Source: a virus
Reading direction: 5' to 3' (one strand)
Length of the DNA: 64,000 nucleotides
IMG/VR virus record: IMGVR_UViG_3300037418_001469
The position numbers were made by a program, and so were the translations under genes. The notes below the pieces were generated by a model. The model was not told where the DNA came from. It did not search any database and worked only from the letters and a program-made list of their open reading frames with translations. Below are positions 5,381 through 39,683 of the stretch, in pieces. Position 1 is the stretch's first letter. Each line of letters starts with the position of its first letter.

Positions 5381-5788
5381 TCACTCCATTCTTACTCCGT
5401 CTATTCTTCCACCGTTTTTAGCACGATATAAAAGTCTCTTGTACTCCTTATCTATTAATTCTAAGGTGTCTTTGTGGTCTGTGGACTGATTTGTATTGTC
5501 TAAGGTTAGTCTACCCTTGACCATTCTAAAATTGTCTCTGTCAGCCTTATCTTTGGTTCTTAGCTTTATAAGGTAATGAGCCTTGACGCAGAATAGATTT
5601 GCATCTTTTTTATCAGGAACTACATTGAAAGCGCCAAACGAGACTTCGAAACCTCTCTCCCAATCTACTTCTACACTTGCGACAGCATCCTCTATATATC
5701 CTATTAAAAGGTCGTCTGTAAAAGTAAAAGGTTCTTCTGTGTCTCCAATTCTCCTTCTTAGTACATTTATTACATCAAACATTTCCAT
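5381..5788 (-). CDS. Putative head-tail adaptor
   Basis: LRRRIGD...FTDD motif typical of adaptors. Confidence 0.55.
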   Translation of the reverse strand: MEMFDVINVLRRRIGDTEEPFTFTDDLLIGYIEDAVASVEVDWERGFEVSFGAFNVVPDKKDANLFCVKAHYLIKLRTKDKADRDNFRMVKGRLTLDNTNQSTDHKDTLELIDKEYKRLLYRAKNGGRIDGVRME

Positions 5789-11961: not shown

Positions 11962-13533
11962 TTATTCAGACAAATGTCCGAATGGCTTAATTACTTTTGG
12001 TTGCGGTGTTTCGATATTAAGGTCAGTAGCCTCAGCTTTTTCAACTTCAACTTCAACTTCCTCAACAACTTCTTCCTGAACAACTTCTTCAACTACTTCC
12101 TCTGCAACAACTTGAGTATTCTTACCTAGTAATTCAGATAAGAACTCCTTATAGTCAACAAAAGAATCATTATCCATAGCAGAAACCTTTTCGATTTCTT
12201 TAGACTTACGAGCCTCAGAAAATTCAATACCTAATTCAGAAAGTTCAGCTAAACGAGATGCTGTAACAGCTTCTTTCTCACTAGCTTCTACTTTATTCTT
12301 TAATGCATCAAAATCTGTTTTAAGACTAGCAAATGCACTATCTTTTTCTTTAAGTTTGCCCTCAAGTTCGTCTAACTTTGTTTGTAATTCAGTTGCCAAT
12401 GCTTGATAATCTGTTGAATCTTCTACAACTACTTCTTCTACTACTTCCTCTACTACTTCTGCTACTACCTCAGTTACTTCTTCGGTAACAACTTCTTGAT
12501 TTTGTAAATCCATTTCTTCACTTCCTCCCTCTTCTTTGATTGCTCCCTCTACATTAGGTTGGTTGCAAATTTCTAAGTCAAGGTCTTCACTTGCTTGACC
12601 TTTAAAGTAATCGCTATTTATATTAGAAACATCAGATAAGAGTTGTTCTATAATACTCTTAACTTCAGAAACTAACTGGTCTTTGGTTGCGATAGTCTCC
12701 TTGTTGAATCTAGAAACAATATCGCTTTTGGCTTTGTCGAATACTTTTACGAATTTTGCTACTGTTAGAGCCTCTACAGTATCTTTATCTAATGTTTTTT
12801 CGCTGAAATCGTTTGTATTTCTTATTATTTGTGCAATTGCCTTAATCTGCTCGTCAGTTAGTCCATCAACGATTTCGTTATTTTGAATAACTTCCTCAGC
12901 GTGTTTTTTAGCAACTGCTAAGAATACAGCCTCTTTGTCAGCAGGGTTTTGCACAACACCCACGCCTCCGAAAATAACATCTTTAAAAATACGAAATACT
13001 TTTTGACCCATATACTCTCTACCAACATAATCAGTAATTCCAAGCTCATTTGCTTGCTCTTGGTCAAATATCTGGTCTCCGTATTTGTAATTAGCATCCT
13101 TAAAGTAACACTCCATTGAAAGTCTCAAGCCACCTGTTACTGACTTCTCTTTGATTGTGTCTGCCATCTCAGGATAGATAAACTTCCAAATGACCCCTAT
13201 AGCCTCTATGTATGCTCTGCCTTCATTGTCTTCCGCATATCGACTGTCTAATATAGTCCCTATCATAGGTTGACCATGTTCCCAATCAATAGGCTTAAAT
13301 CTAGGTGTGTATTGCGCTCTAGATAATACATCTTTAGTGAATGTGTCGCCATTTGCATTAGAGCCTTCATGACACATAATGAATTTTGCGTACATAAGGT
13401 CAGGGTCTAAAAATAAATCTTCTCTGTCAGCTAAACCTGCGAATGATTTCTTTACTTGAGTAATATCACAAGCCTCAACAGAAACTACCTGCATATCAAT
13501 CTTCTCCAAGATTGAGTTTTTATGCTCTCCCAC
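11962..13533 (-). CDS. Prohead protease/scaffold fusion
   Basis: N-terminal NANGDTF, IDWEH, LSMEC, GVGVVQNPAD; acidic coiled-coil C-terminus. Confidence 0.7.
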   Translation of the reverse strand: MGEHKNSILEKIDMQVVSVEACDITQVKKSFAGLADREDLFLDPDLMYAKFIMCHEGSNANGDTFTKDVLSRAQYTPRFKPIDWEHGQPMIGTILDSRYAEDNEGRAYIEAIGVIWKFIYPEMADTIKEKSVTGGLRLSMECYFKDANYKYGDQIFDQEQANELGITDYVGREYMGQKVFRIFKDVIFGGVGVVQNPADKEAVFLAVAKKHAEEVIQNNEIVDGLTDEQIKAIAQIIRNTNDFSEKTLDKDTVEALTVAKFVKVFDKAKSDIVSRFNKETIATKDQLVSEVKSIIEQLLSDVSNINSDYFKGQASEDLDLEICNQPNVEGAIKEEGGSEEMDLQNQEVVTEEVTEVVAEVVEEVVEEVVVEDSTDYQALATELQTKLDELEGKLKEKDSAFASLKTDFDALKNKVEASEKEAVTASRLAELSELGIEFSEARKSKEIEKVSAMDNDSFVDYKEFLSELLGKNTQVVAEEVVEEVVQEEVVEEVEVEVEKAEATDLNIETPQPKVIKPFGHLSE

Positions 13534-21359: not shown

Positions 21360-21938
21360 ATGAGAGTAATCATATTGGAAGGTCCAAGATGTGTAGGAAA
21401 ATCAACGATTGCTAGAGCAATCAGAGAGAAAATTCCCGAAATTACGTTGGTGAACGCTACTGGATATCATTTGGACAATGAAGAAGGCAGAAAGAAAATA
21501 ATTGACTATTACTATAGTTGGATGAATATGATTAACAGTTTATCTAATACTGGTCACGATATTACATTTGTATTCGACAGATTCTTCTTTACAGAAAGAG
21601 TGTTTTCAGAGTTATACAAAGAGTATACTTTCGATTACTACGATATGTTTTGTGAGTGGCTAACTGATGTAGCAGAAGTAGATATCCTTTTCTTTACTAT
21701 TGATAATGTCGATGAATTAAAAGAGCGATTAAACAGAGATAAAGTTCCATTCGGAAAAGCAGAGGAAAGTGTAGTTGAAACACTCAAGCAACAAGATTTG
21801 TATGAAGATATTATGGTCGATTTTTACAGAGATTATTCAAGCGAATCAGCAAGATTACATACGATTGACACAAGTAATAAAAGTTTGGAAGAAATTCAAA
21901 ATGAAGTATTTAAAATAATTAAAAGAGAGGAGACTTAA
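21360..21938 (+). CDS. Deoxynucleoside monophosphate/thymidylate kinase-like
   Basis: ILEGPRCVGKST P-loop, FDRF, IDTS. Confidence 0.75.
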   Translation: MRVIILEGPRCVGKSTIARAIREKIPEITLVNATGYHLDNEEGRKKIIDYYYSWMNMINSLSNTGHDITFVFDRFFFTERVFSELYKEYTFDYYDMFCEWLTDVAEVDILFFTIDNVDELKERLNRDKVPFGKAEESVVETLKQQDLYEDIMVDFYRDYSSESARLHTIDTSNKSLEEIQNEVFKIIKREET

Positions 21939-21939
21939 A

Positions 21940-22695
21940 ATGAGAATTGGAATTGTATCAGATACCCATTCAAATGAACATGCTTTACGTTCTGTGCTAG
22001 AACATATGAATAGTGTCGGAGTAGATAAGAAAGTTCATTTGGGAGATATAGTTGGTTACGGACCGAGACCCAATGAGACATTGGCACTAACATTGGAACA
22101 TTTTAATTACATAATCAAAGGTAATCATGATTACGCTTGTGAGCGTGAAGAAAACACTTGGGGATTTAACCCTATGGCAAAAGAGGCTATCGAATGGACA
22201 GTAAATAAGCTGTCGAAAGAAGAAATCGAGGTGCTGACTAATCTGCCTTACGCACAGAACATTGGTGATACAATGTTTGTTCATGGTAGCCCATATTCTC
22301 CATTTGACTATATGGTTGACGAGAACGATGCCAAGTTAGCCTTTAGTAATGATGACTTTCAAGTAGCTTTTGTTGGTCACACACATGCTCCGTTTGTATG
22401 GTATGAAAAATCTATTGATAAGCCCGAATTTGAAAATACCTTAGTTCTAAACAATTATGGCATCATTGGTGCTTATGAAGTATTGTTGTCAAATAAAGGA
22501 AGAACAATTATTAATGTTGGCTCTGTAGGACAATCTCGTGATGGAGACAATCGTGCAACTTATGCTATTTATGATACACATCTCAATAGAGTAATCATTT
22601 ACAAAATCCCATATCCAGTTGACAGAGTAGTTGGACAAATGCAACGAGCAGGTTTTGATGAAAGACATTATCGAAGACTAATCTTTGGTAGGTAA
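21940..22695 (+). CDS. Calcineurin-like metallophosphoesterase
   Basis: SDTHSN, LGDIVGYG, GNHD, HGSP, GHTH, NVGSVG. Confidence 0.9.
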   Translation: MRIGIVSDTHSNEHALRSVLEHMNSVGVDKKVHLGDIVGYGPRPNETLALTLEHFNYIIKGNHDYACEREENTWGFNPMAKEAIEWTVNKLSKEEIEVLTNLPYAQNIGDTMFVHGSPYSPFDYMVDENDAKLAFSNDDFQVAFVGHTHAPFVWYEKSIDKPEFENTLVLNNYGIIGAYEVLLSNKGRTIINVGSVGQSRDGDNRATYAIYDTHLNRVIIYKIPYPVDRVVGQMQRAGFDERHYRRLIFGR

Positions 22696-22712
22696 TCGAA
22701 AGGAGAATCAAT

Positions 22713-23219
22713 ATGGATTTTAAGACACCAAAGGTGGTATGTGGAGTATGTAACGGAAAAGGTGGATTTAGAAAACTAAAAGATAATTTCCTTGATACAA
22801 ATTGGATTGATTGTGCATACTGTGAAGGATATGGTTTTGTTGATGACACTACCACCGAAGAAGAAGTAACAACACACCTTACATATAACCGATATAAAAC
22901 TAAGTTAGAATCATCATTCAGTATACTAGGAGAATTAAAGGTAGTCACATCAGAATCAGAAAAAACAGATATGTTTGTAAAAATTCTTCCATACAACAGA
23001 AAAAACTGGACTACCTTAATTAAGCACATATTAAAATTCTCGCATCATCACGATAAAATTAAAGTACTTCCTAAGCAAGCGTTTTATCATACAGATGATG
23101 AAACCCACTATATTGATTGGGAATTGCACATTACAATGCATACCCTAGAAGATTTAGATGGACTATTAGAACTAGTTCGCATGTATAATGACACATTAGC
23201 AGTAGGTGGTGGCATATGA
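22713..23219 (+). CDS. Hypothetical protein with CxxCxGxG Zn finger
   Basis: CGVCNGKG/CAYCEGYG. Confidence 0.6.
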   Translation: MDFKTPKVVCGVCNGKGGFRKLKDNFLDTNWIDCAYCEGYGFVDDTTTEEEVTTHLTYNRYKTKLESSFSILGELKVVTSESEKTDMFVKILPYNRKNWTTLIKHILKFSHHHDKIKVLPKQAFYHTDDETHYIDWELHITMHTLEDLDGLLELVRMYNDTLAVGGGI

Positions 23220-23986
23220 AATGTCTAGGATTAACATTCTTAGGAACTGGCAGTGCCTTCTCAAAGAAATTCGGAAATAACAGTGCGGTGGTTACGATAG
23301 GAGATAAGAATTTACTTATTGATTGCGGAAGAACAACACCAAATGATTTAGATAAATCTCAATTCTCATGGTCAGACATTGATGCTATTTTCATCACTCA
23401 TATTCACGGAGACCATGTATTTGGATTGGAAGAGGCAGGATTCATGGGTAGATTCGTTCTCAATAAAAAACCGCATATTATTTTCCCACATAAGAAGATT
23501 AAGCAAGACCTGTGGGAGAAAGTACTCAAAGGAACAATGATGCAAGGAGATTTAGACAGGAACATGACATTCGATGATTATTTTACATATGAAATTGTCG
23601 ATGAGAGAGAGCAATATTTCGAATTTAACGATGTAATGTTTTCTGTATTTTCAACACAACATGTCAAAAATAAAAAATCATATGGCTTAATTATTGGAGA
23701 GTATGATTATATAGTATATACATCAGACACACTTTTTGATAGTGAAATGGTAATTGCTTTCTACCAAGGTGGAGCACAAAAGATATTTCACGACTGTCAA
23801 ATGACAGATTACAAAGGAAAAGTACACGCATCACTAGATGAATTAGCTACATTACCAGAAGAAATTCGAGAGAAGACAGTTATTATGCACTACGGAGATG
23901 ACTTAGATGGCAATTTTACAAGAATTAAAGAATTAAAATTAGGAATAGCGTTGCCAAATATAACTCAAAAATTCGTAGTCAAATAG
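23216..23986 (+). CDS. apyc1: MBL-fold cyclic nucleotide phosphodiesterase, anti-Pycsar Apyc1-like
   Basis: GTGSAFSKK..NNSA, LIDCG, THIHGDH..GLEE, SDT, FHDCQ, HASLDEL, MHYGD match Apyc1 as I recall it. Confidence 0.75.
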   Translation: MKCLGLTFLGTGSAFSKKFGNNSAVVTIGDKNLLIDCGRTTPNDLDKSQFSWSDIDAIFITHIHGDHVFGLEEAGFMGRFVLNKKPHIIFPHKKIKQDLWEKVLKGTMMQGDLDRNMTFDDYFTYEIVDEREQYFEFNDVMFSVFSTQHVKNKKSYGLIIGEYDYIVYTSDTLFDSEMVIAFYQGGAQKIFHDCQMTDYKGKVHASLDELATLPEEIREKTVIMHYGDDLDGNFTRIKELKLGIALPNITQKFVVK

Positions 23987-25522: not shown

Positions 25523-25564
25523 TTTATCCTTGACTTTTTATTATAATTCATTTATAATATAATT

Positions 25565-25900
25565 ACCGAGATAAGCGTAACGCTTAATCAATTAGGAAAC
25601 TGTCAGATGGAAGATAGTAGGGTGGCAGAGAGTAGCAGGTGAATGGGGTTTATTCCTGCCGAATAATTATGAGAGGCTAGCATCTCATAGGAAGTGCATA
25701 TTGGAGTCGGTAGAGGGATGCACAGGGACAACATGGGTTAAAGTGTCTCGCCAAATAATGTTCTACTCTCAAAACTACCAAAATAGCGAATGTCATGGAG
25801 AAACAGAGTGCCTGTAAACAAACTATGATAGCTATGAAAGTGAATGACTGGTTCGGAACATCAAGGAAGGGCAAGGGGCAAAGCTAACGTCCCCCTTCTA
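25565..25900 (+). ncRNA. Unknown ~335-nt structured RNA
   Basis: Own promoter 25530-25558, GC-elevated, multiple helices, no credible ORF. Confidence 0.6.
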
Positions 25901-26126
25901 ACGTAGAAATATCGTCATATTTGACGACATAGAAGGGAATGAGGAATATGAGAAAGTGTGAAAATTGCGGAAACGATAGAGAAGAGTATTTGAATCACTA
26001 CTGCAAGACGTGTTTAGATAAAATGACAGAAAATAACAGTGTAGTAATTCGAAAAGAATTGTGATACAAAATTTATCCTTGACTTTTTAAAGGTCATATG
26101 ATATAATATATTTATAAGATAATGAG

Positions 26127-26309
26127 GTGATTGTTATAAAAGAAGAAATTAGATATGCTTTAGAAAATTTAAAAGATGAAGATAAAATCAAGTCTTTCTT
26201 AGAAAGACAGTCACACGATAGCTTATATTATATATTTACAATGTTAGAATATACAGATGTTGAAACATCTAATCTATGGACAAACACATATAATAGTTTA
26301 TTTAAATAA
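26127..26309 (+). CDS. Hypothetical protein
   Basis: Downstream of promoter 26079; GAGG RBS. Confidence 0.45.
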   Translation: MIVIKEEIRYALENLKDEDKIKSFLERQSHDSLYYIFTMLEYTDVETSNLWTNTYNSLFK

Positions 26310-26314
26310 TATCA

Positions 26315-26381
26315 GAGACACTCACAGCAATCCTACATACAAACAATTCAATTGGTGAATATTAAATGTATATAGTGTCTC
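26315..26381 (+). ncRNA. ACAGCAA-stem RNA unit 1 (Y-RNA-like)
   Basis: GAGACACT-cACAGCAA...AGTGTCTC. Confidence 0.7.
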
Positions 26382-26392
26382 GTTAAACGTAA

Positions 26393-26485
26393 AAGACCCA
26401 AACAGCAAAACAATATAGTGCGATTGGTTCGCAATTTTTCTACTACGAAAATCTAAGAGGTTCAAATCCTCCTATAATGGGTCTT
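26393..26485 (+). ncRNA. ACAGCAA-stem RNA unit 2 with D/anticodon/T-arm-like cargo
   Basis: AAGACCCA-aACAGCAA...GAGG TTCAAAT CCTC...TGGGTCTT. Confidence 0.7.
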
Positions 26486-26505
26486 GTCAAACGTATCTAA
26501 ACGTT

Positions 26506-26610
26506 GGCACATACAGCAATCCACTAACCTATACAGGAAAGTTCTCTACATTATGTAGACTTTAAAGATTGCTCGTGAAGAGCACGAAAAAATTTATCAT
26601 AGCTAGTGCC
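26506..26610 (+). ncRNA. ACAGCAA-stem RNA unit 3
   Basis: GGCAC-atACAGCAA...GTGCC with three internal hairpins. Confidence 0.65.
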
Positions 26611-26669
26611 TAGTAAACTAGAAGTCTATCTCCCCCAAGAGTCCACGTCGACGGGGAGATAAAACGTCC

Positions 26670-26726
26670 AGACATTAACAGCAACACAAAACAAATTTTC
26701 TTTGGATGAAAAATTATAATATGTCT
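26670..26726 (+). ncRNA. ACAGCAA-stem RNA unit 4, abutting the RBS of the TROVE-like gene
   Basis: AGACAT-taACAGCAA...ATGTCT. Confidence 0.65.
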
Positions 26727-26742
26727 AGAAAGGATGATTTAT

Positions 26743-28254
26743 ATGTTAAACCACTTAAAAAATGAAACTAATGTAGCATATACTACTAACGGTGCTAAGG
26801 CACTAAAAACATCTAACTCTTATCTTGTTGATTTCTTCGCATCATCTGGTGCACTGAGAAATCGTTCAAAAGAAGATATTAATCAATTGTTCTCTAAAGC
26901 ATTTGCAGAGGATAAATTATTGGCTATGAAAGCTTTATTCTATACTAGAGACATTCGTGGCGGACAAGGTGAGCGTGAAACATTTAAAACTATTATTAAA
27001 CAATTAGCTTTTACACATCCAGAAGTATTAGCTAGTAATATTAATTTAATTCCCTACTTTGGTCGATATGACGACTTACTAGTTTTGCTAGACACTCCTC
27101 TTGAAAAATTAGCTATGTCTATTATCAGAGCGCAACTACTTGAGGATTTAGATTTAGAGGCTCCTTCGCTATTAGCAAAATGGTTGCCATCTGAAAACGC
27201 ATCTTCTCGTGAAACTAAGCGTTTAGCTAAGAAGGTAGTATATAATTTAGGATTAACTCCTAAGCAATACCGTAAAACATTAACAACACTTCGCAAGAAG
27301 ATTAATATTGTTGAAGGTTTGATGTCAGCAAAGAAATTCAATGAAGTTGAATACGATAAAATTCCTTCTAAAGCAGGTCTGATTTATCGGAATGCATTTT
27401 ACCGAAATGACGGAGAACGATATACTGCATTTGTTGATTCACTTGTAAAGAGCGTGGAAAATAACGACAAAGAAACTAAAATTAATGTTAAGACATTGTT
27501 TCCATATGAGATTATTGGCAAATTCCCAATTACTATGACTACAGCAAATAACCGTCGTCATTATAATGCAGTAGTTGGTCATGCAAGCTCTCAAGATGAA
27601 AAGCTACTAGATGCTATGTGGAAGTCATTACCTGATTTTATTGGAGATAATTTTGATAACGCATTAGCAGTAGTAGATACATCAGGTTCTATGCGTGGAT
27701 TACCTATTCAAGTAGCACTTTCTTTAGGTCTTTACCTTGCCGAAAGAAATAAAGGAATTTTCAATAATCACTTTATTACATTCAGCAAAAAACCTGAATT
27801 ACAAGAAGTGTTAGGTGATACTTTAGGTGATAAGCTAAGAAATATGTCTCAAGCTGATTGGGACATGAATACTGATATTCAGTCTGTATTTAGCCTAATC
27901 CTTAACACTGCAATTAAGAATAATGTTCCGCAAGAAGAGTTACCATCTAAGATTTTCATTATCAGCGATATGGAATTTGATAAATGCGTAGGAAGTGGAA
28001 ACAATAAAACCGTCTTTGGTGAATTGGCTAATGACTTTGCTAAGTTTGGTTATGTTATTCCTGAACTAGTTTTTTGGAATGTTAATGCATTATCTACACA
28101 TTTTCCTGTTAAATACAATGAAACTGGAACTGCCCTTGTATCAGGTTGTTCGCCAACCGTCTTTAAGAATCTACTTGCAGGAAAAGAAATGACACCATAT
28201 GCAATGATGCTAGATGTACTTAATAATGAGCGTTACGATATTGTAATGGCATAA
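26743..28254 (+). CDS. TROVE/Ro60-like RNA-binding protein with C-terminal vWA domain (DUF2828-type)
   Basis: TTNGA, FYTRDIRGGQGER, GRYDDLL, LAKWLPSE, MIDAS VVDTSGSM, IISDMEFD, VFWNV. Confidence 0.85.
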   Translation: MLNHLKNETNVAYTTNGAKALKTSNSYLVDFFASSGALRNRSKEDINQLFSKAFAEDKLLAMKALFYTRDIRGGQGERETFKTIIKQLAFTHPEVLASNINLIPYFGRYDDLLVLLDTPLEKLAMSIIRAQLLEDLDLEAPSLLAKWLPSENASSRETKRLAKKVVYNLGLTPKQYRKTLTTLRKKINIVEGLMSAKKFNEVEYDKIPSKAGLIYRNAFYRNDGERYTAFVDSLVKSVENNDKETKINVKTLFPYEIIGKFPITMTTANNRRHYNAVVGHASSQDEKLLDAMWKSLPDFIGDNFDNALAVVDTSGSMRGLPIQVALSLGLYLAERNKGIFNNHFITFSKKPELQEVLGDTLGDKLRNMSQADWDMNTDIQSVFSLILNTAIKNNVPQEELPSKIFIISDMEFDKCVGSGNNKTVFGELANDFAKFGYVIPELVFWNVNALSTHFPVKYNETGTALVSGCSPTVFKNLLAGKEMTPYAMMLDVLNNERYDIVMA

Positions 28255-28284
28255 TAAATGGAGGGGTAAAACCCTCTTATACGT

Positions 28285-28386
28285 GGAGAGCCTTGGCGGT
28301 GTAGTCCAACGAGACTATTGGTGGTTCGATTCCATCTGAAAACAGTGGCATGCAAATAATAGAGGGTTCGATTCCTTCCTCTCTCA
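28285..28386 (+). ncRNA. tRNA-like RNA with two T-arms
   Basis: GGAGAG/CTCTCT closing stem; GGTGG TTCGATT CCATC and GAGGG TTCGATT CCTTC. Confidence 0.55.
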
Positions 28387-28447
28387 AAAACGTGAATGGC
28401 ATATTTTTCTATATAAGCAGAAGACTAAGACAACACACAAAAATACG

Positions 28448-28562
28448 TAGACACTTACAGCAATCAATCCTACAGGCACTTTAGGTTGGAGGTTAAAATC
28501 CTTCATGACTGAATCAGTCATTAGCTCAAATGTTAGAGCAAAAGTTTTGGATGATGTGTCTA
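28448..28562 (+). ncRNA. ACAGCAA-stem RNA unit 5: circularly permuted tRNA mimic (YrlA-like Y RNA)
   Basis: TAGACAC-ttACAGCAA; T arm, loop-closed acceptor ATGACTG-AAT-CAGTCAT, D arm GCTC...GAGC; GTGTCTA. Confidence 0.8.
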
Positions 28563-28568
28563 GATAAA

Positions 28569-28640
28569 CACTCTATAGTATAACGGTTAGTACATGGCTC
28601 TCATAAGGCTATGGTGGAAGTTCGATTCTTCCTAGAGTGA
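28569..28640 (+). tRNA. tRNA CAU (Met or Ile2)
   Basis: CACTCTA/TAGAGTG acceptor, CTCATAA loop, TTCGATT T-loop. Confidence 0.8.
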
Positions 28641-28642
28641 TA

Positions 28643-28715
28643 TGCGGTGAGGACAAATGGTAAGTCACTAGTCTCATAAGCTAGAGATAGTTGGTTCGAT
28701 TCCAACCACTCGCAA
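28643..28715 (+). tRNA. tRNA-Met(CAU)
   Basis: CTAGT CTCATAA GCTAG; T arm GTTGG TTCGATT CCAAC; bulged acceptor. Confidence 0.75.
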
Positions 28716-28828
28716 TTGTAGGGTTGTAAGAGGTGAAAGTCCTCTACCCTTCACAAAACGTGTTGGTGGCGATTCTTAGGCTACTAGGTTGACAACCTTG
28801 TACGGTATACAGTGCAGAATAGTTGTTC

Positions 28829-28899
28829 GCTCTTATAGTATAATGGTATTACAGTTGACTTGTAATCATCTGATGGCAGTTCGATTCTGTCTAGGAGCA
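28829..28899 (+). tRNA. tRNA-Thr(UGU)
   Basis: Cloverleaf, loop CTTGTAA. Confidence 0.85.
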
Positions 28900-28915
28900 T
28901 CTTCGCCCATACGTA

Positions 28916-29224
28916 TCGTGTGAGTGACAGAGACTATACTACCGTCCGTACCCCCTGTATCGGGTCGATAATTGAAAACGGACAACCGCAATATCCAATA
29001 AGACCTAATCTAAGGCGATACACCTGACATGAGCACAGTAAAGGTTGAGGATAGAGGCAAGCTAGGTTGGTTTTTGGTATGAGCCTAGCATTTCTAATTG
29101 GTGTTGCACTACCTTATCTCAAATGTGCCCTATACAGATAGGAGGTCGTGCTCCTTATAATTAACCTGATAGATGGATGCTCTGCTCCCCATCGGCAAAG
29201 TTGGCAGGCAACGTTAAAACACGA
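28916..29224 (+). ncRNA. Unknown ~310-nt structured RNA
   Basis: TCGTGT/ACACGA closing helix and several internal helices between two tRNAs. Confidence 0.55.
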
Positions 29225-29232
29225 AATATCAA

Positions 29233-29303
29233 TGGGGTGTGGTATAATGGTAACACCTACGGTTTGGGACCGTATGTTGCGAGTTCGATTCTCGCCACTC
29301 CAA
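29233..29303 (+). tRNA. tRNA-Pro(UGG)
   Basis: TACGG TTTGGGA CCGTA. Confidence 0.9.
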
Positions 29304-29347
29304 TAAGTCTTTTATCATCTGTGCTTCACAAAACGTGAGGTGATAAA

Positions 29348-29779
29348 ATGACAAAGAAAATTGAATATGATACAAATGAAAAAGGTTGCATGCTAGTAAC
29401 ATCGCATTACAAGTCTAACACAGGTCATGTGCAGTTAAGAAGAGATGGTAAGGTGCAATGGTTACATAGATATGTTTACGAGCAAGAATTTGGAGAGATT
29501 CCAGAAGGAATGGTTGTAAGACATAAATGTGACAACCCATCGTGTATGAATATTGACCATTTAGAATTAGGAACCCATGTTGATAATGTCAATGATAGAG
29601 TGAAACGTAGAAGGTCTGCAACAGGAACTTCAAATGGTCGCTCTAAATTAACAGAAGAACAAGCTAGGTTTATCAAACACGACAATGAGTACTCTAATGC
29701 AGAGTTATCTAGAATGTTTAATATTAATGCCAAAGTTATTTATGAAATAAAACGAAATTTAAAATGGAAACATGTATAA
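29348..29779 (+). CDS. HNH homing endonuclease
   Basis: HRYVYE...VRHKCDNPSCMNIDHLELGTH.DN. Confidence 0.9.
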   Translation: MTKKIEYDTNEKGCMLVTSHYKSNTGHVQLRRDGKVQWLHRYVYEQEFGEIPEGMVVRHKCDNPSCMNIDHLELGTHVDNVNDRVKRRRSATGTSNGRSKLTEEQARFIKHDNEYSNAELSRMFNINAKVIYEIKRNLKWKHV

Positions 29780-29794
29780 GTGTTTCCTTACTTT

Positions 29795-29868
29795 GGACCC
29801 TTAGTTTAATGGTAAAACTCTTGGCTCATAACCGAGGTTCGCTAGTTCGATTCTAGCAGGGTCCACCA
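29795..29868 (+). tRNA. tRNA-Ile2(CAU), encoded CCA
   Basis: GGACCCT/AGGGTCC-ACCA acceptor like Bacillus Ile2; CTCATAA loop. Confidence 0.85.
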
Positions 29869-29879
29869 AATATTATCAT

Positions 29880-29939
29880 GTCGGGTAGGTCAAACGATAC
29901 TAGTCACTCGTGAGGTGAGATTCCTCCCACTCGGCTCCA
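29880..29939 (+). ncRNA. Truncated tRNA-like RNA ending in CCA
   Basis: GTCGGGT/ACTCGGC-TCCA acceptor, GAGG TGAGATT CCTC T-like arm, no anticodon arm. Confidence 0.5.
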
Positions 29940-29945
29940 AATTAT

Positions 29946-30016
29946 GTGGAATTAGTATAGCGGTAATACATGTGCTTGCCAAGCATAAATCACGAGTTCG
30001 ACCCTCGTATTCCACA
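29946..30016 (+). tRNA. tRNA-Gly(GCC)
   Basis: Loop TTGCCAA, cloverleaf. Confidence 0.85.
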
Positions 30017-30025
30017 TCTTATTTT

Positions 30026-30097
30026 GCCCTCTTAATGTAAAGGATAACATGTGTGGTTTCTACCCACGAAATAGGGGTTCGACTCCTCTAGAGGGTG
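30026..30097 (+). tRNA. tRNA-Arg(UCU)
   Basis: TGTGG TTTCTAC CCACG. Confidence 0.85.
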
Positions 30098-30102
30098 TTT
30101 AT

Positions 30103-30194
30103 GGAGTGTTGGGTGAGTGGCTAAAACCATCAGTTTGCTAAACTGACGAGGGACAGAAATGCGACCTCCATCCGTTCGAATCGGATACGCTCCT
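30103..30194 (+). tRNA. tRNA-Ser(GCU)
   Basis: TCAGT TTGCTAA ACTGA; long variable arm. Confidence 0.9.
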
Positions 30195-30203
30195 TATCCA
30201 TAT

Positions 30204-30274
30204 GTGGTGTTAGTATAGTGGCAATACTCCTGTCTTCCAAACAGGCATCATCAGTTCAAATCTGATACACCACA
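30204..30274 (+). tRNA. tRNA-Gly(UCC)
   Basis: CCTGT CTTCCAA ACAGG. Confidence 0.9.
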
Positions 30275-30294
30275 CTTTTATTATGTCTAAACGT

Positions 30295-30370
30295 AGGGAA
30301 TTAGCGTATAGTGGTTAACGCCAGTTAGAGTTATCTCTAGAGTAAGAAGGTTCGATTCCTTCATTCCCCA
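30295..30370 (+). ncRNA. tRNA-like RNA with aberrant (4-6 nt) anticodon loop
   Basis: Good D and T arms; TAGAG TTAT CTCTA in place of an anticodon arm. Confidence 0.55.
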
Positions 30371-30378
30371 AAAACGTT

Positions 30379-30461
30379 ACGGTCAAGGTTTTATGCCTAC
30401 CTACTTAGTATTCTAGAAAAACTTTGCAAGGTGGTCGAAGGGTTCGATTCCTTTCAACCGT
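30379..30461 (+). ncRNA. T-arm RNA family B, copy 1
   Basis: TCAAGGTTTT.TGCCT...TATTCTAGA.AAACTTT...GGTCG.AGG(G)TTCGATTCCT. Confidence 0.6.
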
Positions 30462-30547
30462 TAAAACGTGAGTTATCTGAGGTGTCCATAAATCCTCACT
30501 CAGTCGGTAATTCTGTTGATGTAAGTCCAACAGAGGTTGCGACAAAC

Positions 30548-30634
30548 GTGCGTTCAAGGTTTTTGCCTGTCTTATTGGACTTATTCTAGATAAACTTTAA
30601 GATGGTCGGTAGGTTCGATTCCTACCAATCGTAC
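30548..30634 (+). ncRNA. T-arm RNA family B, copy 2
   Basis: Paralog of 30379-30461. Confidence 0.6.
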
Positions 30635-30796
30635 AAACGTGCAGAAAGTGTCACATATCTTTAAGGCATATTGCCACTAAGCCCATTAGTAGATATGTAT
30701 GGGAGACACTTAGCATCAACACACCAGTATACACAGCTTAGTCATAGCAACTGCCTTTACAGAATTTAAAAATATATTCTAAAGGAGAATGATAAA

Positions 30797-31084
30797 ATGT
30801 CTTATCCAATTATCTATGAAAAAACTATAGGAAGTCGCCCAACGGCAGTTCCATATCCTAATGATACTGTTGGACAAACAAATGCTATGAAACAAGCAGA
30901 AGATATTGCAAAAAAAGAGTTATTTGATTTATTGATTAACGAGGCTTTTACAGGTAGTAATAAGTTCGCAACCGATGTAACTTTAACAACTGAAATAGTT
31001 ACTGACCTAAATGGAAATAAAACTGTTAAATCTATTGCACAATCAAAAATCTTCAAACGAACAGACATTGTATATCCTGTTTAA
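30797..31084 (+). CDS. Hypothetical protein
   Basis: AAAGGAG RBS. Confidence 0.6.
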   Translation: MSYPIIYEKTIGSRPTAVPYPNDTVGQTNAMKQAEDIAKKELFDLLINEAFTGSNKFATDVTLTTEIVTDLNGNKTVKSIAQSKIFKRTDIVYPV

Positions 31085-31179
31085 TTAAATAAGGAGAAAG
31101 ATTCGTCTTTCTTCTAACGTGCATGGTTCACACAATCTCATTTTATCGTACCTCCGTGGGAGATTATTCTCCCTCTTAT

Positions 31180-31253
31180 GCGAGTTTAGTTTAAAGGCAG
31201 AACTAAGGTCTCCAAAACCTTCGGTAGGGGTTCGACTCCTCTAACTCGTGCCA
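31180..31253 (+). tRNA. tRNA-Trp(CCA), encoded CCA
   Basis: AAGGT CTCCAAA ACCTT. Confidence 0.9.
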
Positions 31254-31466
31254 ACGTGATTAACATAATACCAACTCCTTTTTTTACTAGGCTTAATTGC
31301 CTAGTATTTTTTTTGAATTTTTTTCTAGTTTGTCCTTGACTTTACCCTATTCTACCATTTATAATACAATTATAAGATAAAACGTAACCCAAATAACTCC
31401 TGATAAACAAGAGGACACACAGCCATGAGGCAGGACGTTTTATCAATAACGTAGGAGGTTGGTAGA

Positions 31467-32048
31467 ATGAAAAATTGCACTAAACACTTTTTGGAGCGTT
31501 GGACAGAAAGGATTGTCGGAATTAAAACTGACAAAGAAAGAAATGACTACATAACCAGTAACAGACAAATGATTATTGACCATGCCAATACAACTTTTGA
31601 ACATGCAGACTTTATCTACACTGGTCAGATTGGAAATAACACAGTAAAGAACTTCTACATTAAAGATGATATTATCTTTGTCGCTAATACCTCTAATGAT
31701 GCCCTTATCACTGTTTATAAGATTGACCTAGGCTTTACCCCTGAGTTGAATGTAACGGTTCGTAGAGGCTTACTAGAGGAGATTAGAAGGCTTACCGCTG
31801 AACACGAGGAAATCGAACTACAGGCTATGTTAGAGGTCGATAAAAAGTACGAAGAGGCAGATAAAATGGAAGACCAAATTAAAATCATGAAAGAGCAGTT
31901 GTTGCTAATGGAGAAACAAAGAGACTTTGTTAAACAAGAGGCTAACATGCTTAAGTCAAGGTCTTTAAATACTGGACTAGAGTTAAAGAAATTTACTACA
32001 ATGCTAGTAAACTCTAAAGAGTATAAAGACGACTTGAGGAATATATAA
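31467..32048 (+). CDS. Hypothetical protein: T.H..ERW.ER N-terminal domain plus coiled coil
   Basis: Own promoter 31336; AGGAGG RBS. Confidence 0.6.
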   Translation: MKNCTKHFLERWTERIVGIKTDKERNDYITSNRQMIIDHANTTFEHADFIYTGQIGNNTVKNFYIKDDIIFVANTSNDALITVYKIDLGFTPELNVTVRRGLLEEIRRLTAEHEEIELQAMLEVDKKYEEADKMEDQIKIMKEQLLLMEKQRDFVKQEANMLKSRSLNTGLELKKFTTMLVNSKEYKDDLRNI

Positions 32049-32578
32049 TGATACGCATTATCATAGCAGGTGGTAGACACTTTGATGACTATGAATTTTT
32101 GCGAGACAAGGTAAGCGACTTTATCCTTATGGAATTACCGAAAGAGTATTGGAAACCTGAGAATATAGAGATAGTATCAGGTGGTGCTAAGGGTGCTGAC
32201 TCCCTTGGTGAAAGATATGCCAAAGATACAGGTTGTAATATTAAGAGATTTATTCCTGATTGGAGTATCGGAAAGAAAGCAGGAATACTACGCAATCATG
32301 AAATGGGTGATTATGCTGATATACTTTTAGCCTTTCATGATGGAGAGTCAACAGGAACTAAAGATATGATTGATTATGCAATAAAGAAAGGTTTACTTGT
32401 AGAGGTGTTTACATATGAACCTGTCATATGGACTTATTTTAGCGAGGAACAAGGAAACGGTTTCGATGTATCGTTTACTGCTTTTTATAAACAACAAGTT
32501 AAAAAACATTCACGAGAGCCTGTAGGTAAGAAGATAAAGATAACTTATCAGGAGTACGAAAGAGGTGGAAAAAATTGA
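32048..32578 (+). CDS. SLOG/YspA-like (DUF2493-type) protein
   Basis: IIAGGR.F.DY, IVSGGAKGAD.LGE.YA, AG.LRN..M, S.GTKDM. Confidence 0.8.
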   Translation: MIRIIIAGGRHFDDYEFLRDKVSDFILMELPKEYWKPENIEIVSGGAKGADSLGERYAKDTGCNIKRFIPDWSIGKKAGILRNHEMGDYADILLAFHDGESTGTKDMIDYAIKKGLLVEVFTYEPVIWTYFSEEQGNGFDVSFTAFYKQQVKKHSREPVGKKIKITYQEYERGGKN

Positions 32579-32976
32579 ATAAGCCTACATTCATTGTGGA
32601 AGGTTGGAAAGATGCTTATCAGATTCAAGGAGCATTAGAAGGTCATGATTACGGTATTATTGTGACTGACGGTACTAAATTTAACAATGCATTAGCAATT
32701 AAGATTAATAAAACTATTGAAGAAGGATATACACCATATATCTTGTCTGACCCTGACGAGGCAGGAGACCATCTAGCTGTCATGATTAATCATCATTTTC
32801 CCGACATTGAAAGGATTAATGCTGATTATGAGCATTGTAAATACTGTAAGGACTTAAGAAAGAAAAAGTTCAAAGCAGGCATAGAATATAGTTCATATAA
32901 GTATTTGAAAAATCTTTTATATCCATATTTAGGATTAATATATGTTGACCCTAATAGACAGTGGCTTTATCTATAA
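32575..32976 (+). CDS. Toprim-domain protein, RNase M5-like
   Basis: IVEG.KD, ILSDPDEAG, GIEYSS. Confidence 0.7.
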   Translation: MNKPTFIVEGWKDAYQIQGALEGHDYGIIVTDGTKFNNALAIKINKTIEEGYTPYILSDPDEAGDHLAVMINHHFPDIERINADYEHCKYCKDLRKKKFKAGIEYSSYKYLKNLLYPYLGLIYVDPNRQWLYL

Positions 32977-34604: not shown

Positions 34605-34802
34605 ACAGAAGGGGACTATCCCCCTTTTGTAACGTGCAATAAAAAAACAAATCTATGGAGGTAGATATTATGATTAACTTTGAAGAACTATTATTGAAAA
34701 TTGTTGCAGAATTACCATTAAGTGAGTTTGAGAAAGCGTGTGAGAAGGCAGGTATCAATCAATATCTTAAAGAAGATATTTTAAACTTAATGGAAAGACG
34801 AG

Positions 34803-37580: not shown

Positions 37581-37748
37581 ATATATCACTCCTTACAACA
37601 ATTATAACATAGGAACGTATGTTTGTCAAGGTTGTCTAATGAGCAGAAGGACTCCACTATTATTATATCACGTTTTTTGATTTTTATTCCTTGACTTTTC
37701 GGGAATATTTTTTTATAATATAAGTATAAGATAAATGGAGGTGCGAGT

Positions 37749-39603: not shown

Positions 39604-39683
39604 GTCAGGGTTCGTCCTTGACTTTTCCTTTTACACGTTTTATAATATAGATATAAGATAAACAATTGAATGGAGGAAATAGT

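Follow-up and report, generated by a model that had tools for sequence, protein, structure and literature searches.

How is a long viral transcript resolved into its parts when these parts are as different as Y-like RNAs, tRNA-like RNAs, ordinary tRNAs, two larger structured RNAs and a few open reading frames (ORFs)? This question is raised by an RNA island located at positions 25,565–31,466 of a 64,000-nucleotide (nt) stretch of phage DNA (IMG/VR record IMGVR_UViG_3300037418_001469), hereafter the window, in which the word ACGU recurs between the RNA units. An original prediction, made from the letters of the sequence, regarded (A/U)ACGU as a punctuation of the non-canonical RNA units and as a mark for the ends that RNase P and RNase Z cannot make. 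The data presented here lead us to lean towards a related reading: ACGU would be read in single-stranded RNA and direct either endonucleolytic processing or the formation of 3' ends, at boundaries that can be set neither by RNase Z nor by an RNase P site located downstream.

A strand-specific word in the linkers

The non-coding DNA of the island (3369 nt) contains 19 copies of AACGT, against 3.5 +/- 1.8 in 1000 dinucleotide-preserving shuffles (maximum 10; z 8.4), and 13 copies of AAACGT, against 1.1 (z 11). No other 5-mer is as enriched as AACGT relative to the remainder of the window (19 copies for 1.08 expected, Poisson 1e-17); GTTCG, the tRNA T-loop word, ranks below it. The reverse-strand word ACGTT is not enriched in the same DNA (4 copies for 3.0), so that the enrichment concerns the + strand only. 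The k-mer enrichment proposed as a check by the original prediction is thus significant and strand-specific. All 22 positions that it had listed carry (A/T)ACGT on the + strand, several of them designating the first A of AAACGT and hence lying 1 nt before the coordinates used here; one ACGT copy had been left off, at 29604, in the coding sequence of an HNH ORF.

Over a 5.7-kb stretch, 19 of the 23 ACGT copies fall within 386 nt of linker and only four within 5310 nt of units (Fisher 3e-19), i.e. densities of 49/kb and 0.75/kb, a placement test that is partly circular, as the unit boundaries were drawn by hand from tRNA predictions, stems and ORFs by an analyst aware of the motif. With this reserve, most copies do lie in linkers at unit edges, as had been proposed; they follow hairpins, acceptor-like stems and the closing stems of Y RNAs. 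The two gaps pointed out earlier are also real: the run of canonical tRNAs (29945–30275) contains no ACGT, and the 1.5-kb ORF described as TROVE contains none for 3.6 expected. A global thermodynamic fold of the island misfolds known tRNAs and mostly pairs the ACGU copies with one another; it was not used as evidence.

The consensus in the window is (C/A)AA-ACGU-R, the base that follows ACGU being a purine at 17 of 22 sites. Among 111 sites from seven related loci, an A-rich 5' flank precedes ACGU and C is rare after it, and the flanks are asymmetric along the direction of transcription (A at -1 in 65/111, T at +1 in 25/111; p 3e-5). The core of the (A/U)ACGU form is therefore real, but the motif is better described as ACGU preceded by A-rich sequence and followed by a base other than C, CACGU being found too. 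No second conserved block occurs between -10 and +11 of the 111 sites, and a two-box promoter reading was dropped for this reason. Such a short invariant word, strand-specific, asymmetrically flanked and located in linkers, is what would be expected of the site of an endoribonuclease of the MazF/EndoA type.

ACGU and the 3' ends of upstream units

The clearest indication of what the word may do comes from tRNAs. In the related locus L113, 17 of 25 tRNAs are directly followed by the motif, mostly as CCACGU or CCA(A)nCGU. Across the family of related loci, the motif lies within about 10 nt of 27 of the 69 tRNAs that do not abut another tRNA and of only 2 of the 46 that do (Fisher 1.6e-5), and it follows none of the 66 tRNAs of four control phages outside the family. 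The distance from the last base of CCA to the A of ACGU is 0 in ten cases, +1 in six and +2 in three, a few sites being further away; at offset 0, the terminal A of the encoded CCA doubles as the A of ACGU. In the window, most tRNAs have neither an encoded CCA nor the motif, and the terminal CCA-encoding tRNA-Trp reads G-CCA-ACGU. RNase Z is known to be blocked by an encoded CCA. The absence of the motif at abutting tRNAs, together with its presence where no RNase P site lies downstream and where CCA blocks RNase Z, fits a signal for ends that those enzymes cannot make. This part of the original prediction is supported by the absence of the motif where adjacent tRNAs supply RNase P and RNase Z sites, but canonical CCA-encoding tRNAs are marked too; the restriction to non-canonical RNA units was therefore wrong, since relatives have CCA directly followed by CGU after ordinary CCA-encoding tRNAs.

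The motif also occurs behind terminal hairpins that have only a promoter or a terminator downstream. For this reason, it appears from the sequences to belong to the 3' end of the upstream unit; the placement at unit edges stands, and the choice between 5' and 3' edges falls on the latter. Other copies lie directly 5' of a Shine-Dalgarno sequence (29332 and 31448 in the window, others in L001, L099 and L113); cleavage at these copies would yield mRNAs whose first nucleotides are the ribosome-binding site, and such mRNAs are stabilised in Bacillus.

The same linkers could instead be read from their downstream side, ACGU being an optimised 5' leader of the next unit that RNase P cuts right after ACGU. 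In Bacillus-type RNase P, A at -4 and U at -1 of the leader favour cleavage, several tRNA-like units and the YrlA-like RNA begin 0–1 nt past ACGU, the next base is usually a purine (see above) and one relative encodes its own class B RNase P RNA. However, at least eight window sites precede a ribosome-binding site, a promoter, a terminator or an unstructured RNA, with no acceptor-like stem, the motif of L113 is locked to the upstream CCA (offset 0–1) while what follows varies, and the canonical tRNAs of the window have other leaders, so that we consider this reading unlikely.

An upstream 3'-end signal can be followed site by site, all on the + strand, by comparison with L001 and L002, two viral contigs whose Ro-like proteins are 72–73% identical to that of the window. 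At the end of a ~335-nt RNA, the AACGT at 25886–25890 is inside the terminal hairpin, is missing from the orthologous hairpins of L001 and L002 and is probably incidental, and the AACGT at 25900–25904 lies 2 nt 3' of this hairpin and has TAAACGT as its ortholog in L001 and CACGT in L002. Next come AACGT 3' of Y-like unit 1 (26386–26390, within AAACGT) and 3' of Y-like unit 2 (26490–26494), both kept in L001 and L002; a second AACGT 10 nt downstream of the latter, 1 nt before Y-like unit 3 (26500–26504), is found in the window only, L001 and L002 having a single copy. The AACGT at 26663–26667 follows Y-like unit 3 and a G+C hairpin and precedes Y-like unit 4 and the leader of the Ro-like gene; it is kept in L001, and L002 has neither the hairpin, nor the equivalent motif, nor Y-like unit 4. 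Behind the stop codon of the Ro-like gene, a hairpin is followed by TACGT (28280–28284), with a hairpin and TAACGT at the same place in L001.

Further downstream, AACGT (AAAAACGT, 28389–28393) lies 3' of the tRNA-like unit 28285–28386 and TACGT (28444–28448) abuts the YrlA-like RNA on its 5' side. Two tRNAs and a minihelix are followed by AACGT (TTCACAAAACGTG, 28757–28761), a CCA-less tRNA-Thr is followed after 10 nt by TACGT (28910–28914), located before a ~295-nt RNA, and AACGT lies at the 3' edge of this RNA (29210–29214). The copy at 29332–29336 (TTCACAAAACGTG) directly precedes the Shine-Dalgarno sequence of the HNH ORF. After the canonical run, AACGT is found 3' of its last tRNA, abutting the first tRNA-like unit (30290–30294), between tRNA-like units (30373–30377), between units (30465–30469 and 30545–30549), between the last tRNA-like unit and the leader of ORF 30797–31084 (30636–30640), and 2 nt 3' of the hairpin behind this ORF (31116–31120). 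The AACGT at 31253–31257 overlaps the encoded CCA of tRNA-Trp, the last RNA before the terminator; L001 has CCAAACGT there and L002 a tRNA-Asp with CCAACGT. One additional site lies outside the stretch covered by the original list, between the ClpP gene and the next ORF, as a hairpin followed by UUGU and AACGUG (34631–34635).

Three listed sites (25886, 31381 and 31448) differ in nature from the others. That at 31448–31452 directly precedes the AGGAGG ribosome-binding site of ORF 31467. That at 31381–31385, kept in L001, is in the 5' arm of a leader stem in which AUAAAACGU pairs with ACGUUUUAU (31435–31443). In an L001 paralog of this P3 leader (13285–13400), the stem is kept as AUAAAGUGU/ACACUUUAU, with compensatory changes, and L002 lacks the leader; because the paralog pairs with other letters, site 31381 is best put in a separate class, where comparison indicates that the structure rather than the word is conserved.

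This stem also illustrates a reading in which two copies of the self-complementary ACGU would form a helix bracketing a unit, to be cut by RNase III, Mini-III or a Toprim/RNase M5-like protein. Minimum-free-energy folds pair 26387 with 26664 and 28758 with 28911 (6 bp), the leader stem is one such pairing, and a gene for a Toprim protein lies close to the island and occurs in four phages that have the motif. Nevertheless, four base pairs give too little stability for a helix to form dependably, the A-rich 5' flanks have no matching U-rich 3' flanks, Y-like unit 1 and many tRNAs have the motif on one side only, and phage P59 combines a Toprim homolog with a motif-free tRNA array; such a pairing signal is very unlikely.

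The processing that we favour can be pictured as follows. ACGU, preceded by an A-rich flank and followed by a base other than C, would punctuate a long polycistronic transcript from linkers left single-stranded, where it directly follows a completed structure, be it the closing stem of a unit, an acceptor stem, an encoded CCA or the hairpin at the end of a gene. A sequence-specific endoribonuclease, encoded either by the phage or by its host, would cut at or next to ACGU; the arrangement in which CGU directly follows CCA is suggestive of cleavage at the A-C junction, or in its vicinity with later trimming. The upstream RNA would keep a protected structured 3' end and the downstream RNA would start at its own stem or Shine-Dalgarno sequence. 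What the sequences show is that the motif exists, is strand-specific, has a regular placement, is conserved within one lineage and is retained against the genome-wide depletion of ACGT; its cleavage, the position of the cut and the nuclease are inferred.

Conservation, depletion and candidate enzymes

The motif is kept at no fewer than six orthologous linkers of L001 and L002 (3' of the 335-nt RNA, of Y-like units 1 and 2, of unit 3 with its hairpin, of the closing hairpin of the Ro-like gene and of the last tRNA), while the surrounding loops and spacers diverge. A phage contig of 49% G+C (G001/L099) has AAACGUG between its Y-like units and also after two CCA ends. Protein look-ups revealed a syntenic family of elements of about 150–175 kb that share an integrase, a sigma factor, an S1-domain protein, a kinase, a metallophosphoesterase, an Apyc1 homolog, the RNA island and the Ro-like gene; one of them, of the L113 type, sits in an assembly of a Paenibacillus illinoisensis isolate (GCA_037144455.1). 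A pattern scan of viral contigs gave 92 matches, most of them due to chance, the real ones being the L065/G001 clade and a clade at 40% identity; the latter shows no punctuation.

Several findings weigh against a processing signal. The Bacillus phages Tsamsa, PJN02 and vB_BcoS-136 have ACAGCAA Y-like units and a homologous Ro-like gene but no ACGT punctuation, and the motif is mostly missing within the Y array of L110, a relative at 61% identity; the distribution thus indicates a lineage trait rather than a requirement of the Ro-like ribonucleoprotein or of Y-like RNAs. Where linkers are short, the motif touches both neighbours, and it is mainly the relatives that assign it to the upstream one. 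The 6-kb stretch is matched by DNA runs from soil and rhizosphere and by no RNA run. The ACGT depletion described below is strand-symmetric, with 22 sense AACGT and 23 sense ACGTT among the coding copies, and is better read as restriction avoidance than as RNase avoidance. The scan for an enzyme and the distribution of the two nuclease candidates, described at the end of this section, count on the same side.

Outside the islands, ACGT occurs at 0.18–0.38 of its second-order Markov expectation in all seven syntenic family loci; when the undepleted G001 loci are pooled with them, 123 copies are observed for 266 expected (0.46, P 8e-23), the mean ratio of nine control loci being 0.91. The non-coding DNA of the islands has 3–7 ACGT/kb across the family and 7/kb in the window. 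GATC is absent from the 64-kb window (155 copies expected), as are GGCC, CCGG and CGCG, all four being missing from the island too, and GCWGC and CCWGG are nearly absent from coding sequence across the family, which gives the window and the family what reads as a strong multi-site restriction-avoidance signature. Because the depletion of ACGT has no strand bias and groups with restriction-type palindromes, an RNA-level avoidance of AACGU in mRNAs was rejected. Since the island avoids the other palindromes yet has 7 ACGT/kb, the linker copies look as if they had been retained by selection against a genome-wide pressure for loss.

These data bear on whether the motif acts only in DNA, as a junction or target of recombination that shuffles RNA-gene cassettes or as a restriction-modification site. 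ACGT is palindromic and depleted genome-wide like a restriction target with GATC and GGCC, the contents of the window and L001 diverge right after some motifs (e.g. after the hairpin of the Ro-like gene), and the window encodes a tyrosine recombinase and HNH endonucleases. On the other hand, the flank asymmetry tracks the direction of transcription, the constant position with respect to CCA ends and stems is a feature of RNA and no inverted-repeat recombination sites flank the units; a purely DNA-level role is highly improbable.

The Ro-like gene of the island (26734–28254, + strand) encodes a protein of 506 amino acids with Pfam DUF2828 and DUF7788/vWA. It has no PDB match at the sequence level, but its AlphaFold2 model (predicted local distance difference test, pLDDT, 80) matches Ro60/Rsr/TROVE structures over its whole length, these being all of the top 11 Foldseek hits against PDB (E 2e-6 to 2e-4, probability 1.0, template-modelling score ~0.5–0.6). 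The TROVE label given earlier to this ORF thus holds at the level of the fold.

This protein makes it conceivable that the motif is bound rather than cut, an S1-domain protein, a chaperone or the Ro-like ring reading the tail beside a structured RNA for its stability, loading or sorting. The Ro60 ring threads single-stranded 3' ends, the island has a gene with this fold, an S1-domain protein is conserved beside the island in the family loci, and the data on placement and conservation fit binding equally well. But the motif is also found at ordinary tRNA CCA ends and at gene-end hairpins far from Y-like RNAs, and mature tRNAs tolerate no 3' extension past CCA, so that the tail must be removed anyway; binding with no cleavage is rather unlikely.

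If ACGU is a processing signal, a nuclease has to read it. A Pfam scan of about 75 ORFs of the window, i.e. about a third of a ~174-kb genome, found no MazF/PemK, ToxN/AbiQ or Cas6. Two genes located 3' of the island encode candidate nucleases. The first (31467–32048, + strand), lying just after the island and behind a leader with two motif copies, encodes 193 amino acids, modelled (AlphaFold2 pLDDT 91) as an N-terminal RelE/ParE/colicin D-E5-like fold and a long coiled coil (~90 residues). Over residues 1–87, VIA-align gave Z 8.3 to 6l7q, 6.8 to colicin D and ~5 to many RelE/YafQ/colicin E5 chains, the likeness being at the fold level, with no match to Pfam or to any sequence family. H7, R11, R15 and Y84 are invariant and K85 is nearly so among its homologs, which are highly conserved and occur in many phages and prophages of the Bacillus group. 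This BECR-like protein was nonetheless set aside as the enzyme, as vB_BcoS-136 has a homolog (64% identity) and no punctuation and L001 has no such ORF at that place. The second (32575–32976, + strand) encodes a small Toprim protein (Pfam Toprim), distantly RNase M5-like (NCBIfam RNase M5 E 1.9e-5, below the cut-off; PDB 2fcj, a small Toprim protein). The window, G001, G002 and G003 have this gene, which Tsamsa and PJN02 lack; it was rejected too, since P59 has both a homolog (50% identity) and a motif-free tRNA array and other homologs are in dense coding regions.

Three other leads were abandoned. A gene with a metallo-beta-lactamase fold, considered for the role of an RNase Z, clearly encodes a homolog of Apyc1 (PDB 7u2r, E 4e-46) whose similarity to RNase Z is N-terminal only. 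It belongs to a block (21360–23986 in the window) of a P-loop kinase, a metallophosphoesterase, an ORF and the Apyc1 homolog, which directly precedes the RNA island in every locus of the family. A link to EndoA through an ORF of 45 amino acids was dropped, as Pfam has no match for this ORF and the family shows no depletion of UACAU (ratio 1.03). The element AACGTTTATA...TGTAAAG of Bacillus phage HSE3 (L005), considered as a relative of the motif, looks like a promoter element unrelated to the punctuation. In this phage, AACGTTTATAnTAnTGTAAAG recurs upstream of genes, at 930, 5388, 6209 and other positions, and looks like a phage-specific promoter with no link to the punctuation.

Island layout, known systems and meaning

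The window is phage DNA of 34.5% G+C, matched only in soil and rhizosphere metagenomes. The longest contig with its proteins is 173.6 kb; megablast found no close DNA relative among cultured phages, and scans of metagenomes and genome collections with the Ro-like protein returned distant loci only and no host genome. Between 25.5 and 31.5 kb, all features are on the + strand. A promoter P1 read from the sequence (25530–25565; sigma-A-type, TTGACT-17-TATAAT type), with the same arrangement in L001 and L002, would drive the ~335-nt structured RNA (25565–25899), which is syntenic in both contigs and ends in a hairpin GAAGGG...CCCTTC. A second promoter, P2 (26075–26122), with a family-wide TATAAGATAA element, would start a transcription unit of about 5.2 kb that extends to a terminator-like hairpin and T-run, also read from the sequence (31287–31320), which closes the RNA unit near 31290. 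In the family, this type of promoter consists of tCCTTGAC-N17-TATAAT, about 6 nt and the invariant TATAAGATAA, as an early promoter with a conserved initial transcribed element; it is found at 26075–26122, 31330–31380, 37680–37734 and 39607–39661 of the window and also in L001, L002, L099, L110, L112 and L113.

The ~5.2-kb unit opens with four Y-RNA-like hairpins with a common ACAGCAA box, followed by the 506-amino-acid gene and then by tRNA-like units, a YrlA-like RNA, 11 tRNAs, the ~295-nt RNA, the HNH gene and the small ORF 30797–31084 with its 3' hairpin. Y-like unit 1 combines the box with a GACAC/GUGUC stem, and Y-like unit 2 has a T-arm. The ACAGCAA box differs from the published box of YrlA-type Y RNAs, GNCGAAN0-1G (PMC4201824). 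The YrlA-like RNA (28448–28565) matches Rfam YrlA at 30.3 bits (E 1.5e-3), below the gathering score of 69; the ~335-nt RNA and the ~295-nt structured RNA (28915–29207) have no Rfam match even at E 10.

Three RNA elements of these loci may be mentioned separately. The hairpin 3' of Y-like unit 3 (26625–26662) has a loop AAGAGUCCAYRUCGA that is nearly identical in the otherwise diverged Tsamsa and vB_BcoS-136 (L004 ~5640–5680; L114 ~5690–5720) and, judged by this comparison, is a conserved RNA element. The unit 3' of the 28757 motif (28762–28780) begins with GUUGGUGGCGAU, which presumably resembles the 5' end of Bacillus 5S rRNA, taken here to be UUUGGUGGCGAU. A full-length class B (Firmicutes-type) RNase P RNA lies on the minus strand of L099 (4523–4900; contig IMGVR_UViG_3300019124_000038), inside a tRNA array (Rfam RF00011, 238 bits, E 1e-69); none was detected in the window.

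Several known systems resemble the arrangement of the island. In tRNA punctuation, as in mitochondria or in the T4 tRNA cluster (via RNase P, RNase Z/BN and others), a mixed precursor of tRNAs, stable RNAs and ORFs is likewise resolved at unit boundaries, and the scarcity of the motif at abutting tRNAs (2/46 vs 27/69) is as expected from RNase P and RNase Z action. Here, however, the boundaries beyond the reach of tRNA-shaped signals are marked by a short word; to our knowledge, the classical model contains no such primary-sequence word. In the type III toxin-antitoxin system ToxIN, ToxN cuts the ToxI repeat array between AA and AU, and both systems thus have an array of small RNAs with a short A-rich word between units, these being released by sequence-specific cleavage in ToxIN. 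Unlike ToxI repeats, which are near-identical, the units of the island are heterogeneous (tRNA-like, Y-like, RNAs of 295–335 nt), the motif also follows tRNAs and ORFs, and the scanned ORFs include no ToxN/AbiQ-like gene. An array of the CRISPR/Cas6 type would require a repeat-spacer structure, not seen here, and cas genes, of which the scanned ORFs contain none.

In phage T4, RegB attacks early mRNAs by cutting the GGAG of their intergenic ribosome-binding sites. It resembles our case by a phage-linked short intergenic RNA word beside the Shine-Dalgarno sequence, which several motif sites directly precede; but RegB destroys this sequence, which is intact here, downstream of the motif, and a search of the genes identified no homolog of RegB. 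The word recognised by colicin E5, YGU(N), is contained in ACGU, and the N-terminal domain of ORF 31467–32048 is predicted to have a fold of the colicin E5/D (BECR) type (Z 5–8); this likeness is at the fold level, the ORF encodes a candidate nuclease and its homologs occur in phages that lack the motif.

MazF and EndoA have a strict specificity for 3–7 nt of single-stranded RNA, and ACGU is one base off the EndoA core ACAU. By contrast, MazF products bear a cyclic phosphate, which leaves no chargeable CCA end unless repaired, the scanned ORFs of the window include no MazF/PemK gene and UACAU is not avoided in the family. Bacillus subtilis EndoA cuts UACAUA after the first U, and Nitrospira MazF cuts AACU, AACG and AAUU (PMC11780869, PMC7291052), so that a MazF cutting AACG and AACU exists (PMC7291052). 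The consensus of RNase Y is weak in B. subtilis (PMC11780869), whereas MazF/EndoA-type enzymes and BECR RNases have a strict primary-sequence specificity of 4–6 nt. By analogy, the strict short core of the island motif resembles MazF/EndoA-type or BECR-type specificity more than that of RNase Y. On this reading, the ACGU punctuation would belong to the sequence-specific RNA processing signals; the literature searches made here found no described equivalent.

A bolder extension of this reading, possible but doubtful, is that an ACGU-specific endoribonuclease dedicated to this role, from the phage or host lineage, provides a third route of 3'-end formation beside RNase Z and exonucleolytic trimming. 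By cutting between A and CGU, it would free tRNAs ending in CCA together with tRNA mimics and Y-like RNAs, and the mRNAs produced would begin at their ribosome-binding site. If this is true, one four-letter grammar would serve the whole non-coding RNA island. The maturation of tRNA/non-coding RNA islands in Firmicutes phages, like the endonuclease that opens the 3' maturation of CCA-encoding tRNAs in Bacillus-type cells, is largely unexplained, and a four-letter signal at RNA ends offers a mutable handle that predicts cut positions and a possible route to a new sequence-specific RNase, useful as a tool. The motif outlines where the Y-like RNAs and tRNA mimics of the phage, found beside a protein of the Ro60 fold, are likely to end when mature; should it prove to be no more than a site for binding or a leader for RNase P, it would still delimit the units of an unusually rich viral RNA locus.

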